64,000 nucleotides of DNA from Escherichia coli (lineage in GTDB: Bacteria > Pseudomonadota > Gammaproteobacteria > Enterobacterales > Enterobacteriaceae): the NCBI RefSeq assembly GCF_003334335.1, contig NZ_QOWQ01000001.1; one strand, 5' to 3'. Position numbers: made by a program. This document shows, piece by piece, positions 12,001 to 15,000 of the stretch; position 1 is the first letter of the stretch, and each line of letters starts with the position of its first letter.

Positions 12001-15000
12001 CAACAACTTACCGTGATAGCAGAGCGTATTACAGTATCCAATAATATTGTCGTAGCACCGGCGGTGTTCATATAGGTACATACCACGAGCCAGTTCGGGA
12101 TCATATTGATAGCGCGAAGCAAACTGCGCTATTTTCATAACGCTGCCAGATGCGGCACTTTTACCAAGGTCTGCGATTGCCGTATATTTCTCGGTAATCT
12201 CTTCTTGCGTACTGCCAGACAGAATTTTTTCCGCCAGCATGTTACCGACATCAATCGCAGGAGCAATACTCCATATTGGCGGGATCTGCTCCGTATCGCC
12301 AATCACTAATGCCTTCTTAGCTAATGCAAACGAGGCAGCAGCCACTTCAGGAAGCACCTGCCCGGCTTCATCGACAATGAGTAAATCGGCAAAATCATAC
12401 AAATAACTTTTCTCGAATTTACGTTGTCCTTTGTGCTCACTTATCTGCATATTGCCGGGCAGCATATAGCATGTCATCACCACACATGGAGTGAGTTTCA
12501 TTCGACGTTGCCAACGGGCGGTTACCCCTTTAGCGCCTTTTTTCTTCTTCTCTTCCTGCAGATCATCAATTCTGGCCATATCCATCAGCCAACGACCTTC
12601 CCAGTAGTGAGTCGTCAGTAAAAATGCAGGGAAGCGAATCTGCGTATCAGCCAGTTCATCGGCCTGTGAGAAGCTCAGTTCCTCGTCGCCCTCATACCCT
12701 AAATCAAATGCCAGCCTCTGCCACTCCTGAACCGCCTGCTGTTCTTTAAGAACGATTTCATGGGCGGAGTCAATCTGCTGCCGGTATGTTGTTTGCTCGC
12801 GCTCAGCGGAATTGAGCAGCCCATCAATATTACGTTCGATAGTTTCAGGATCAGACCACTGATTTCCTGCAATCAGCGCGCCTAATTTATCTTCGAGAAA
12901 CAGCTGTATTTGGTACTGTCGCTTATTGCGAACCGCCGGGAGCCAGGAAAATAATGAATAGATCAGTGATTCACCGGCGCGATATTTTTTCCATTCCGTT
13001 TTAGCACTCTTCAGTAGAGTGACTTTTTGTTCTTGTCCGGAAAGTAATTTATTTAAATTATCGAGATATTGCTCAATATCATTAGCAATAAGCTCACGCG
13101 CAGCCCGAATCTGGCTTAACGTTTGCCATGTTGCGTTCAGTCTTATCAGTTGCTCAGATTTTGCTGCCAACTGACCATGCAAGAGTTCAATGACCTTTTC
13201 AGGGGATGAACACTCTTTTCCAGGAAAGGCTGCCTTAGCCTTTTCCAGATAAAACAGCAGTGCATCCTCTACATACTCTTTTGACTCAACCTGGTTGAAG
13301 AAATCTTCAGTTTGATATTTTTTGGCTGCCTCAGCTTTACGACTGCTTGAGGGAAAATAAGCACCGAAGCTTTTCAGCTCTGGCAACCATCGCCCGGCCA
13401 TCGCACCTGAACCTTGCGAAAAGTCTTTCCCGAATGCCTCAATAATGTTCGTTACAGCCTGGTTATTCGTTGAAGTCGCGATAATAACCGGAGGCTCAGA
13501 TTTTTCGAGAGCCGCTCTGGCCCACTGCGTGGCGATGATAGAAAGCACCAGCGTGGTTTTTCCGGTTCCCGGAGGGCCATTAACAGCAAGGATATCGCCA
13601 TGTCTTGCATCCAGAAAATGGCTTAAGGCATCGCGCTGAGCCTTTGCCAGCGGAAACTTATCTCCGGAGTGTCCAAGCCTGTCGCTGAATTTTGCTCCTG
13701 GGGCCAGCAAAGACTCTGCAGCATGAACCTCTCGCGAGGCGAAGCGATTGAAGAGCGGCACATCCTTATTGCAAACAAGCAGGTGATCATAAAGAGAAAG
13801 GATATGGGAACTGGCACCGCCAGATTGAGCCGTTTTAACAATATAACCGTGCTCAGCGAGTTCATATTGCTCAGGTTTTTCAATCCAGTCGCCGGCAACG
13901 CTCTTCAGTAGCCTCTCTGAGTCATACAGATATTGACGCCACTCCTGCTGCAAGGCGGCATATCGTGCTTCCCGTTCTTCATCCGTTTCGGCAGTCTTAT
14001 CAACGCTGTCATCAAAGTTGATAGAGAACGTGGTATGGGTCGTCTTGTATTTGTCATACTGCCCAATCTCACCAATCGAAAATGCTCCTTTTGGCAAAGG
14101 TTCAAGCAGGTCTCTGGGAATGGAGGTCGCTGGCGTCGGATATAAAAAACCCTCACGGCTTAGCAAGGCTGGCGTCACTATCGGGGTAACAATATCAGGC
14201 GCACCTGCAGAACGGTCCTTACCATGCTGCAGTAACCGGAAATAAACTTTTGGGCGCAAGATGACATCGACCGTTTCGACATCGTCTTTTTCTCCCTTAA
14301 AAAATTTACTGACAATCGCTTCGTCAAGACGTCCCGCCGCTATCCCATGCCAGTGAGTGAAATTTTTGGCGTCTTTCCGTTCAAAACTGCCCTTTCCTGA
14401 CTCAGCATCCGCAAGCGAGTTGCGCCAGTATGAGGTAAACCCTAAAGCATTTTCATCCATTACCAGTCCTGTGACTCAATGAAATCCATTGATTTATCGA
14501 ATATAAAACCACCATATGGACAGCTATTGTCCATATTGAAAAAGTTGGATGCAATGTTTTGTTTATAATTCGGTATCAAATGTACTGGTTGTACAAGGTT
14601 CAGAACACAAGCACATTCAACAGTACGTCAGGACTATTGATTTCATAACAGTGAATACATTTTTTACCGTTTATAATGACTGCCTGTGTTGGACAAGGAT
14701 ACCAGAACAGCCGAAAACACCGGGGGTTATTACCTGCTCTCATGGAAACCAGATATTCCTGGTGCTAATCACAGTCATAAATAGCCTGAAGAACATGACG
14801 AAGGGACTTTAATGGAAGCCGGAGTAACTTGCCAGAACATCAATCTTCGTCATCATTTACAAAGAAAAATAATCAGTTAAAGCAGTCCGGGCAATCAGCC
14901 CGGACTGCTTACTATTTTAATGGATTGTTAATCTTTGCATATTCAAACGGGCTGATACCCTTATCTCTGTTCGCATCCAGAAAATCTGCCCACCACTGTA

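Follow-up and report, generated by a model that had tools for sequence, protein, structure and literature searches.

Anatomy of the spacer upstream of the Mokosh type II gene mkoC in Escherichia coli, and a candidate promoter at its palindrome

Our goal was to understand what drives expression of a defence gene located behind an integrase, and what part a palindrome upstream of that gene might play. The locus lies within a 64,000-nucleotide stretch of E. coli DNA, which we refer to as the window. The defence gene, mkoC (10945–14460, minus strand), encodes 1171 amino acids. Residues 1–1169 of MkoC match positions 1–1135 of 1136 in PADLOC profile PDLC03924 (E = 0, 1690 bits). Mokosh type II consists of one protein that joins an N-terminal helicase to a C-terminal PLD nuclease, and the match covers this family profile from end to end. 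Upstream, on the same strand, is a P4-type tyrosine integrase gene (14912–16174) of a tRNA-Phe island, with the tRNA-Phe gene beside it (16372–16447, minus strand). Note that the integrase match to the NF007246 domain (E = 7.5e-74) is below the curated cut-off. The gap between integrase and mkoC, 14461–14911, is 451 bp long and has a G+C content of 39.2%, compared to 50.3% across the window. An earlier note described this gap as a long, non-coding, AT-rich leader of about 450 bp, saw in it an inverted repeat with the geometry of a dimeric repressor operator, and suggested that mkoC is separately transcribed and possibly regulated, although no regulator gene is adjacent. The length and base composition are real. 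The lack of an adjacent regulator is also correct for the annotated neighbours, which are the integrase, mkoC, IS fragments and a traF pseudogene. In an Rfam search, spanning 13500–17000, the tRNA alone was matched.

Comparison between strains indicates that the spacer is a mosaic, comprising a putative integrase terminator, the end of a dead gene and a short conserved cassette with a candidate promoter for mkoC. We propose that these three unrelated pieces were brought together by island rearrangements. This comparison lends no support to the description as a long leader; the distal ~300 bp would be terminator and the relic of a pseudogene, and we predict a 5' UTR of no more than ~57 nt. The integrase-mkoC unit is found with the same spacer at pheV, pheU, leuX and selC.

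The piece next to the integrase is a hairpin at 14880–14910. It has a perfect 13-bp stem, with G-C in 9 of the 13 pairs, and a 5-nt loop. One base separates the hairpin from the integrase stop codon (14912–14914, minus strand), in agreement with the earlier note. The fold has a predicted energy of -27.5 to -28.6 kcal/mol (z about -8) and, reading from both strands, resembles an intrinsic terminator. On the plus strand, the tail is ACTATTTTAA, which is U-rich enough to be called by our terminator scan. The tail on the integrase strand, TTTAACTGATTATTTTT, falls short of the same threshold. In 1291 E. coli genomes the hairpin lies beside the integrase. Its loop, present at 1821 places, reads AATCA or TGATT, the orientation being flipped between strains. 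Other integrase alleles have compensatory changes, from G-C to C-G and from U-A to C-G. Two pairs vary on both sides (G-C, C-G or U-A in one case, U-A or C-G in the other). In the hairpin alignment, a small sample of 4 distinct sequences, 90% of cells pair, compared to 29–46% when the alignment is slid. These patterns show that the hairpin travels with the integrase and that the stem is kept by compensatory changes. We propose that the hairpin ends integrase transcription and once also ended that of a convergent, plus strand, gene. Consequently, mkoC would be insulated from the integrase.

The remains of the convergent gene form the middle piece (14660–14826, plus strand). Hence, the spacer is non-coding in the sense that no intact gene is present, but not throughout, since this segment is a decayed 3' gene end. 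In two related islands, L004 and L031, the corresponding position carries fragments that PGAP labels as pseudogenes, and the family name, phosphoethanolamine transferase, rests on that annotation. The segment FFTVYNDCLCWTRIPEQPKTP (14660–14722) matches the L004 fragment, with E = 1.6e-9 against the whole window, and the end of the relic aligns with the terminal ...KNFNEPLE, preceding the stop, of L031. Longer partial versions of the relic (P0004, HVPMFIWYSP...) occur at contig ends beside an integrase; searches of NCBIfam and PDB sequences with P0004 were uninformative. The relic does not match the intact phosphoethanolamine transferase gene found downstream of mkoC in other strains and, therefore, derives from a different paralog. 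The segment 14680–14911 occurs with the integrase and without mkoC. We suggest that the relic plays no part in mkoC expression.

The remaining piece, 14461–14616 on the minus strand, is a module that accompanies mkoC. The last ~110 bp (14461–14570) are recognisable across Enterobacterales. Homology to leuX-island, Citrobacter and Salmonella alleles ends ~156 bp upstream of the mkoC ATG, and relatives with 62–72% protein identity align only from about -110. At leuX, the proximal 103–156 bp are present with mkoC and without the 14912–16174 integrase. In Citrobacter and Salmonella, too, the same DNA occurs beside mkoC and, more generally, it accompanies the gene in islands having other upstream genes or none. 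A 24-base cassette pattern was detected at 96 metagenome loci, with mkoC downstream in 85. At 7 of the other loci mkoC was deleted or truncated, and for 4 the contig end was too near to test. On this evidence, the cassette appears specific to mkoC. Note that the fixed columns of the metagenome pattern are invariant by construction, so that the unbiased set consists of the protein-anchored sequences only. No mkoC relatives were found in viral contigs.

The G+C content of the cassette is 32%. In an alignment of 17 sequences, with protein identity down to 62% (hereafter A1), the invariant elements are TTG(C), TGGACAAT, CAT, TTTA.A, AA.CAA....TT and the Shine-Dalgarno region; flanks outside the cassette do not align. 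The Shine-Dalgarno sequence itself, AGGA (14467–14470, minus strand), is 6 nt before the mkoC ATG (14460–14458) and the surrounding GTCAC(R)GGA is conserved in A1. The cassette defines a candidate minimal native promoter region, of ~110 bp, for a widespread E. coli defence gene. It also corrects the notion of a 450-nt regulatory leader upstream of mkoC.

Evidence that DNA upstream of mkoC suffices for function comes from a close ortholog. Millman et al. (2022) cloned defence systems with native upstream DNA, and Mokosh defended E. coli under native promoters. Their type II construct, SG150, listed as verified, carried 326 bp of upstream sequence. The MkoC studied here is 96.7% identical to the protein of locus L003, the upstream DNA of which matches SG150. 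Cloned with only these 326 bp of its own upstream sequence, the ortholog protected E. coli K-12 against phage. Note that the sufficiency of the 326 bp is taken from this published work, and that read-through from the vector is possible in such a construct.

Where, within the cassette, might transcription begin? All elements described below are on the minus strand. The sequence TTGCAT (14549–14554) resembles a -35 element; in the 17 sequences TTG is invariant and C nearly so. The octamer TGGACAAT (14526–14533), which occurs once in the window and is invariant at 8 of 8 positions in A1, holds the -10-like hexamer GACAAT (14526–14531). The two hexamers are separated by 17 bp here and by 16 bp in other clades. 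Across 9 lineages, TTGCNN-16/17-GACAAT is the only positionally fixed pair resembling a sigma-70 promoter, and the -10 element ends 63–65 nt upstream of the ATG. Matches to the sigma-70 consensus are 3/6 for TTGCAT and 4/6 for GACAAT, giving 7/12 for the pair, and the key positions TTG, A-11 and T-7 are invariant. The position weight matrix score, 7.8 bits, is not above that of the best site in shuffled sequence, and our promoter scan made no call. An invariant TG stands immediately before GACAAT, whereas an extended -10 element would need it shifted by one base. Therefore, the -10 element alone leaves some of the eight invariant bases unexplained. Just upstream of the -35-like box is an A-rich tract, ATAAACAAAACA (14555–14566), that may act like an UP element; both A1 and the metagenome variants retain AACAA(A/T) here. 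The predicted start zone, 6–10 nt downstream of the -10-like hexamer, is 14516–14520. It overlaps a conserved CAT (14518–14516), whose A and T never vary in A1 and whose C almost never does. A search of the literature and data sets found no start-site data for a strain carrying mkoC, of which G1/2 and UTI89 are examples.

Other arrangements fit less well. Pairing TGGACA, as a -35 element, with TATATT, as a -10 element, gives a 22-bp spacer and the latter ends in C in most clades. The spacing does not fit a MerR-type promoter, and inspection by eye found no sigma-54, sigma-32, sigma-28 or sigma-E patterns. We also rejected a 24-codon upstream open reading frame, from an ATG at 14533 to a TAA at 14461 that overlaps the mkoC start codon as TAATG. 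This frame has no Shine-Dalgarno sequence, codon 22 is CAG, TGG or TAG among E. coli alleles, and the frame stops after 4–6 codons in other clades.

Taken together, we propose that the A-rich tract, the -35 element TTGCAT (14554–14549), the 17-bp spacer and the -10 element GACAAT (14531–14526) drive mkoC. Transcription would start near 14519–14517. An AT-rich 5' UTR of ~57 nt would follow, containing a motif like the IHF core and the AGGA Shine-Dalgarno sequence and, in this clade, an H-NS-like motif. Within this UTR, the conserved AT-rich block (14482–14507) contains TTTATAT, TCGATAAATC and AATCAATGGATTT; the invariant columns in A1 are T, A, A, then AA.CAA....TT. The sequence AATCAATGGATTT matches the IHF core, WATCAANNNNTTR, at 12 of 13 positions, with the fixed positions invariant in A1, and is a predicted site. 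Note that the full IHF consensus is expected ~3 times per 64 kb by chance, and that its final R is unmet in most lineages. Similarly, TCGATAAATC is a predicted site matching the H-NS motif, TCGATAAATT, at 9 of 10 positions. Outside the E. coli/E. albertii and Citrobacter-type clades, the H-NS-like decamer is absent. For both motifs we used the strings published in PMC2094087 and PMC8942017. Between the right arm of the palindrome and the mkoC ATG, RNAalifold predicted no pairs.

The palindrome sits on this predicted promoter. As the earlier note stated, it is a perfect 9-bp inverted repeat with a 5-nt loop. The arms, ATATGGACA and TGTCCATAT, are at 14514–14522 and 14528–14536, are 100% complementary, and lie 54–76 nt upstream of the mkoC ATG (14460). 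One correction is needed; the string quoted in that note starts at 14512 rather than 14513. The dyad spans the predicted -10 element and start zone, from about -17 to +6. Perfect 9-bp inverted repeats, with 3–10 nt loops, occur in 1.5% of Markov-1 random 451-bp sequences; across the 64-kb window ~2 are expected and 15 observed. Hence, the dyad is modestly improbable locally, though it was picked from a scan of 64 kb.

Conservation of the two arms is unequal. In the left arm TGGACA is invariant; of its partners in the right arm, G survives in 5/17 sequences, T in 9/17 and C in 13/17. For the inner ACA of the left arm, also invariant, the partner TGT is present in only 5/17. The E. coli/E. albertii allele alone reaches pairing at 8–9 of 9 positions; the range in other clades is 3–7 of 9. 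Relative to the Citrobacter-type allele (ACGTGGACA...TATCCATAC) there are 3–4 derived substitutions, and each creates a base pair. That all of them do so hints at selection for symmetry. Across 747 E. coli genomes, the dyad has a median of 1 and a maximum of 2 places per genome (1 in strain G1/2), and the exact 35-mer around it (14508–14542) is found in only 16 of the 747. We propose that the palindrome is the core of a weak sigma-70 promoter, with TGGACAAT making up most of the left arm and the right arm supplying CAT at the start site. Its extension to a perfect 8–9-bp dyad would be specific to E. coli and E. albertii, and not needed for expression or defence. Overall, a three-piece spacer, with the palindrome as core of a weak sigma-70 promoter for mkoC, is the explanation that we judge best and somewhat probable.

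The dyad might instead be an operator, at which a dimeric protein, whose gene would lie at another E. coli locus or on a phage or mobile element, represses mkoC until relieved. The local improbability of the perfect dyad (p about 0.015) and its location over the predicted promoter, typical for a repressor, are consistent with this. Among E. coli alleles, eight arm pairs persist despite C/T variation in the loop, and every derived arm substitution, compared to the nearest allele, adds a pair. However, the comparisons do not bear out the earlier proposal of a dimeric operator. The half-sites are asymmetrically conserved, the perfect dyad is confined to one clade and the SG150 allele, which is expressed and defends K-12, has a degenerate 5/9 dyad. 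A regulator gene is not among the annotated neighbours, though one may act in trans. Further copies of the palindrome, which the earlier note suggested seeking, were not found; allowing <=3 mismatches there is one match in the window, and one place per genome in the 747 genomes. We know of no transcription factor with the dyad half-site. To our knowledge, none of the sites for LexA, CRP/FNR, PhoB, HipB, IscR or NikR, nor the DnaA box or GntR/TetR-type sites, provides a convincing match. For the DnaA box, agreement is at 6–8 of 9 positions only. We thus consider repression through the dyad unlikely.

Two further readings were considered. In one, the dyad acts as RNA in the sense transcript, forming either a weak terminator or attenuator of transcription that comes from upstream, or a 5' stem-loop that stabilises mkoC mRNA. 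The scan flags a minus strand, terminator-like, 9-bp stem followed by GGTGGTTTTA, and the RNA folds at -11 kcal/mol (z = -2.7). Dyad pairing in A1 was assessed under an imposed structure, the free consensus fold covering only the stretch between right arm and ATG. At three positions the sense strand has G-U where Watson-Crick pairing is lost, and in each of the two outer pairs both members vary. Conversely, two inner pairs are broken in 8/17 and 12/17 sequences and shuffle controls were marginal. The stem has only 3 G-C pairs, the T-run is 5 nt away and, if the conserved promoter is correct, transcription would start inside the hairpin. An RNA role is very unlikely. In the other reading, mkoC has no promoter of its own, is transcribed by read-through from the integrase or further upstream, and the cassette would serve translation or processing only. 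The promoter-like hexamers are indeed weak and uncalled by the scan, and integrase and mkoC share a strand. Against this, a structurally conserved hairpin of -28 kcal/mol stands between the two genes, and the proximal 110–156 bp move with mkoC across islands and species, independently of the integrase, under other or absent upstream genes. Furthermore, SG150 was active with its 326 bp of upstream sequence. The same three observations support the earlier suggestion that mkoC is separately transcribed, and we regard read-through as highly improbable.

A broader possibility builds on the promoter cassette. The elements TGGACAAT, CAT, TTTA.A and AAYCAA-N4-TT are kept more strictly than the protein, for which identity falls to ~60%. 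In addition, sister clades have a different dyad, TGCGA-N6-TCGCA, over the -35 element, where E. coli has ATATGGACA-N5-TGTCCATAT over the -10 element and start site. The ~110-bp cassette could be a cis-regulatory module dedicated to Mokosh type II in enterobacteria, with clade-specific operator dyads, such that mkoC is regulated rather than constitutive. Expression may then be tied to a host factor (IHF, H-NS or another protein) or to infection. We consider such a module quite unlikely. Should either the dyad or the conserved block of the 5' UTR prove to bind a factor, this would provide an entry point to expression control of Mokosh type II. For now, we regard the region as commonplace promoter and terminator anatomy within a mosaic island. 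Our literature search found neither a description of the mkoC upstream cassette nor a paper on Mokosh regulation.

How do these features compare with known systems? With respect to the protein, the full-length PADLOC match and the identity to the verified allele place MkoC with Mokosh type II (Millman et al. 2022), and we see no difference. Bidirectional Rho-independent terminators share with 14880–14910 a G+C-rich stem, tails rich in T, of which the plus-strand one passed our scan, and a position one base past a stop codon, as well as preservation of the stem through compensatory changes. Unlike them, the 14880–14910 hairpin has an interrupted U-tract on the integrase strand (UUUAACUGAUUAUUUUU), and one convergent gene is now a mere relic; termination here is a prediction. 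As in lac O1 and LexA boxes, which are operators over the -10 element and start site, the dyad is perfect, has a short spacer and lies on a predicted core promoter. It differs in having no known cognate protein or second genomic site, in half-sites that are asymmetrically conserved, and in that the perfect dyad is dispensable in the active ortholog. Finally, the arrangement resembles weak sigma-70 promoters of horizontally acquired genes in AT-rich surroundings, and is a candidate for control of the H-NS or IHF type. It has -35-like and -10-like hexamers spaced by 16–17 bp, an A-rich tract upstream and an AT-rich cassette with putative motif matches of 9/10 (H-NS) and 12/13 (IHF), although the mkoC hexamers score poorly and the promoter is a predicted one.

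The mkoC gene (10945-14460, minus strand) encodes a 1171 amino acid protein that matches the PADLOC MkoC profile end-to-end (E = 0, 1690 bits). MkoC constitutes type II Mokosh, a defence system of one gene only. Genes for a tyrosine integrase (14912-16174; 420 amino acids) and tRNA-Phe (16372-16447) are on the same strand. The 451 bp spacer between integrase and mkoC (14461-14911) is identical throughout to that of E. coli strain G1/2. It is AT-rich, with a G+C content of 39.2% compared to 50.3% for the window, and contains a perfect dyad, ATATGGACA-GCTAT-TGTCCATAT (14514-14536). 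There is also a hairpin with a perfect 13 bp stem (14880-14910), ending one base before the integrase stop codon. The earlier note described the AT-rich spacer, dyad and hairpin correctly, except that its dyad string was one base off. Its description of the spacer as a long leader is wrong. We conclude that the region is ordinary: a pseudogene relic lies between a predicted terminator and a predicted promoter, which is weak and conserved. The core of this promoter happens to be a perfect palindrome in the window's clade.

The complete spacer is found in 722 E. coli genomes. Joined to the integrase and mkoC, it occurs at pheV (strains G1/2 and EV36), pheU (GPEC505 and CFT073) and leuX (UTI89); in CFT073, mkoC is cut by an IS3 element. 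Other strains share only parts of the spacer. In MRY15-131, mkoC is in a leuX island without the window's integrase, and just the proximal 103-156 bp are shared. This allele is also present in Citrobacter and Salmonella. The variant at selC, where the integrase is a different one and a TPR gene is present, has the proximal 278 bp in common with the window. Within these 278 bp begins, on the opposite strand, a fragment annotated by PGAP as a phosphoethanolamine transferase pseudogene. Strain P276M has the integrase-proximal 232 bp, without mkoC. On the plus strand, the relic reads FFTVYNDCLCWTRIPEQPKTP at 14660-14722, in agreement with the selC fragment (E = 1.6e-9 for a comparison with the whole window). 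The same pseudogene in an O103:H2 strain is convergent with the integrase and ends, with KNFNEPLE and a stop codon, approximately 65 nt before the hairpin; aligning the window to this end shows one indel and a stop codon in frame. Longer partial relics (P0004, starting HVPMFIWYSP) are found at contig ends adjoining an integrase. Our own searches linked the relic fragment to no full-length protein, and the family name is that of PGAP. We conclude that 14660-14826 is the end of a dead gene, that 14880-14910 belongs with the integrase, and that the share of mkoC is limited to the last 110-156 bp.

In other strains, a 499 amino acid phosphoethanolamine transferase gene is convergent to mkoC (877-2376 of locus L006). 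The window keeps only the last ~29 nt of this gene, in the region 10808-10944, and homology to L006 (99.6%) begins at 10808. Directly past this point, the G1/2 record has annotated IS3-family and other transposase fragments. We infer that these IS remnants truncated the transferase gene.

The hairpin has predicted folding energies of -27.5 and -28.6 kcal/mol on the plus and minus strands respectively (z about -8). A scan identifies it as terminator-like on the plus strand and, on the integrase strand, the tail after the hairpin is TTTAACTGATTATTTTT. With a 91 nt probe, the hairpin was found adjoining integrase genes in 1291 genomes, which exceeds the number with mkoC. Distant integrase alleles keep the stem by two-sided changes (CAGT/ACTG to CACT/AGTG, and TCCGGGC/GCCCGGA to CCCGGGC/GCCCGGG). 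Overall, 90% of alignment cells are paired, compared to 29-46% with the partner slid, in a set of four distinct sequences only. We read the hairpin as a predicted two-way terminator, remaining from two convergent genes, that would now insulate mkoC from the integrase. The 5 nt loop (14893-14897) occurs in both orientations among strains with an identical stem. The window and UTI89 have AATCA (plus strand); TGATT is found in CFT073, EV36, GPEC505, P276M, HS13-1 and O104:H4 C227-11. The pattern resembles repeated inversion of the loop, for which template switching inside the hairpin is the presumed mechanism.

Protein similarity was used to gather mkoC relatives, both from 100,044 species genomes and from plasmids. 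For 17 sequences, we aligned the 143 nt that precede the start codon. Protein identity in this set falls to 62% and flanking DNA cannot be aligned. Invariant in all 17 are the TTG of a TTGC box, preceded by an A-rich tract, and the octamer TGGACAAT, located 16-17 bp on. So too are the A and T of a CAT nine bases past the octamer, the T, A and A of TTTATA, the pattern AA.CAA....TT, and parts of the Shine-Dalgarno region. On the minus strand of the window, the elements are TTGCAT (14554-14549), GACAAT (14531-14526), CAT (14518-14516) and AGGA (14470-14467), with the ATG at 14460. Hence, the invariant octamer forms the dyad's left arm, and the conserved CAT is within the right one. With a simple sigma-70 matrix, TTGCNN-16/17-GACAAT is among the top four sites for 9 of 11 upstream regions, and no other site keeps a fixed distance; in this pair, the -10 element ends 63-65 nt before the ATG. 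Note that the score, 7.8 bits, is not above that of the best site in shuffled sequence, and a separate promoter scan does not call the TTGCAT-GACAAT pair. Hence, the assignment rests on conservation rather than score. Separate transcription of the defence gene, as the earlier note suggested, is supported.

A pattern of 24 specified bases from the cassette, the DNA immediately before mkoC, was used to search metagenomes. Among 96 loci found, 85 have the mkoC N-terminus downstream, and 7 are orphan cassettes with mkoC deleted or truncated. For the other 4, the contig end is too near the motif to judge. We conclude that the cassette is specific to mkoC. Orphan cassettes on three metagenome contigs (L072, L084 and L105) are cut just before the Shine-Dalgarno sequence, and an unrelated 262 amino acid gene follows, with its own ribosome-binding site. 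In L036, L041, L088 and L094, mkoC is deleted past ~25 codons. Sister clades (L009, L010, L012, L018, L019, L020 and many metagenome loci) have an inverted repeat of their own, TGCGA-N6-TCGCA, that overlaps the -35-like box and lies 20-35 nt upstream of TGGACAAT. Its arms are conserved, its centre is variable, and it is absent from the window's clade; L117 retains it and has lost the TTG. On Arsenophonus nasoniae plasmid paPv1 (L023), a 50% identical mkoC has ATATGGACAA ~20-35 nt upstream of the start, without the remainder of the cassette, which may be chance or a remnant. Separately, the window has an exact 9 nt direct repeat, GTTTATAAT, at 14561-14569 and 14669-14677 (plus strand, 108 bp apart). 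Each copy includes a perfect TATAAT on that strand; the Citrobacter-type allele does not retain the repeat, and we saw no suitable -35 element.

In the predicted 5' UTR, 12 of 13 positions of AATCAATGGATTT (14494-14482) agree with the IHF core WATCAANNNNTTR, the invariant columns coinciding exactly with fixed positions of the consensus. The final R is unmet in most lineages, and the full consensus has about three chance occurrences per 64 kb. Similarly, TCGATAAATC (14500-14491) agrees with 9 of the 10 positions of the H-NS motif TCGATAAATT, in the window's clade and the Citrobacter-type clade only. Given that the cassette is 32% G+C, nucleoid proteins could plausibly be involved in control. 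A 24-codon upstream open reading frame (14461-14533, minus strand) has a TAA stop that overlaps the mkoC start as TAATG. This is probably not a gene: a Shine-Dalgarno sequence is lacking, E. coli alleles differ at codon 22 (CAG, TGG or TAG), and the frame closes after 4-6 codons in other clades.

A perfect 9 bp inverted repeat, with a 3-10 nt loop, arises in 1.5% of random 451 bp sequences of the same first-order composition. Approximately two are expected in the 64 kb window and 15 were seen, most being short G+C-rich stem-loops by sequence. The dyad occurs once in the window, with up to three mismatches permitted. A 35 nt dyad probe matched in 747 of 5426 complete E. coli genomes, with one place per genome (maximum two); strain G1/2 has one. 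Hence, no second site points to a regulon. Only 16 genomes have the exact 35-mer, and the dyad of most E. coli alleles is 8 bp, with the outermost pair broken (CATAC) and ATAGC or ATAGT as the loop.

The earlier note saw in the dyad a geometry typical of a dimeric repressor operator. That it is an operator is unproven, and comparative evidence makes this the less likely reading. Conservation is lopsided: TGGACA is invariant, while its right-arm partners are kept in 5, 9 and 13 of the 17 sequences. Across 58 distinct variants, 8-9 pairs form only in the ATATGGACA...TGTCCATA(T/C) clade, and 3-7 in others. No regulator is adjacent, as the note itself said and the neighbouring genes bear out, and no second site emerged from the 747 genomes. 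Conversely, the dyad spans about -17 to +6 of the predicted promoter. Moreover, three fixed changes and one polymorphic change, separating the window's clade from its nearest relative, all make pairs. Each of the relative's four mismatches is C-A or G-T, and a transition at any of these positions would therefore produce a pair. By rough estimate, all changes would make pairs by chance a few per cent of the time; this is no more than suggestive. We consider a functional operator unlikely. That the dyad acts as an RNA hairpin is more improbable still. While a scan calls it a weak sense-strand terminator, and the RNA fold is -11 kcal/mol (z = -2.7), the T-run is 5 nt from the stem and, if the promoter is correct, transcription would start within the stem. 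Some departures from pairing are G-U on the sense strand, and two outer pairs are altered on both sides, but two inner pairs are broken in most lineages and shuffle controls are marginal. RNAalifold found no consensus structure in the predicted 5' UTR.

Our preferred reading, a conserved promoter, can be set beside a system with known activity. Millman et al. cloned candidate systems with intergenic DNA, to retain native promoters, and reported defence of E. coli by three Mokosh systems. SG150, the type II construct that they list as verified, is from E. coli 5-366-08_S1_C1 and begins 326 bp upstream of the ATG. The upstream DNA is the leuX/Citrobacter-type allele (397 of 399 bases match L003), for which MkoC is 96.7% identical to that of the window. 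Here, the dyad is ACGTGGACA-ATAGT-TATCCATAC, with only 5 of 9 pairs. The activity of SG150 may derive from vector read-through. Note that K-12 is without the island. SG150 provides defence with 326 bp of upstream sequence and a 5/9 dyad; therefore, read-through aside, native upstream DNA suffices in K-12 and a perfect dyad is not needed.
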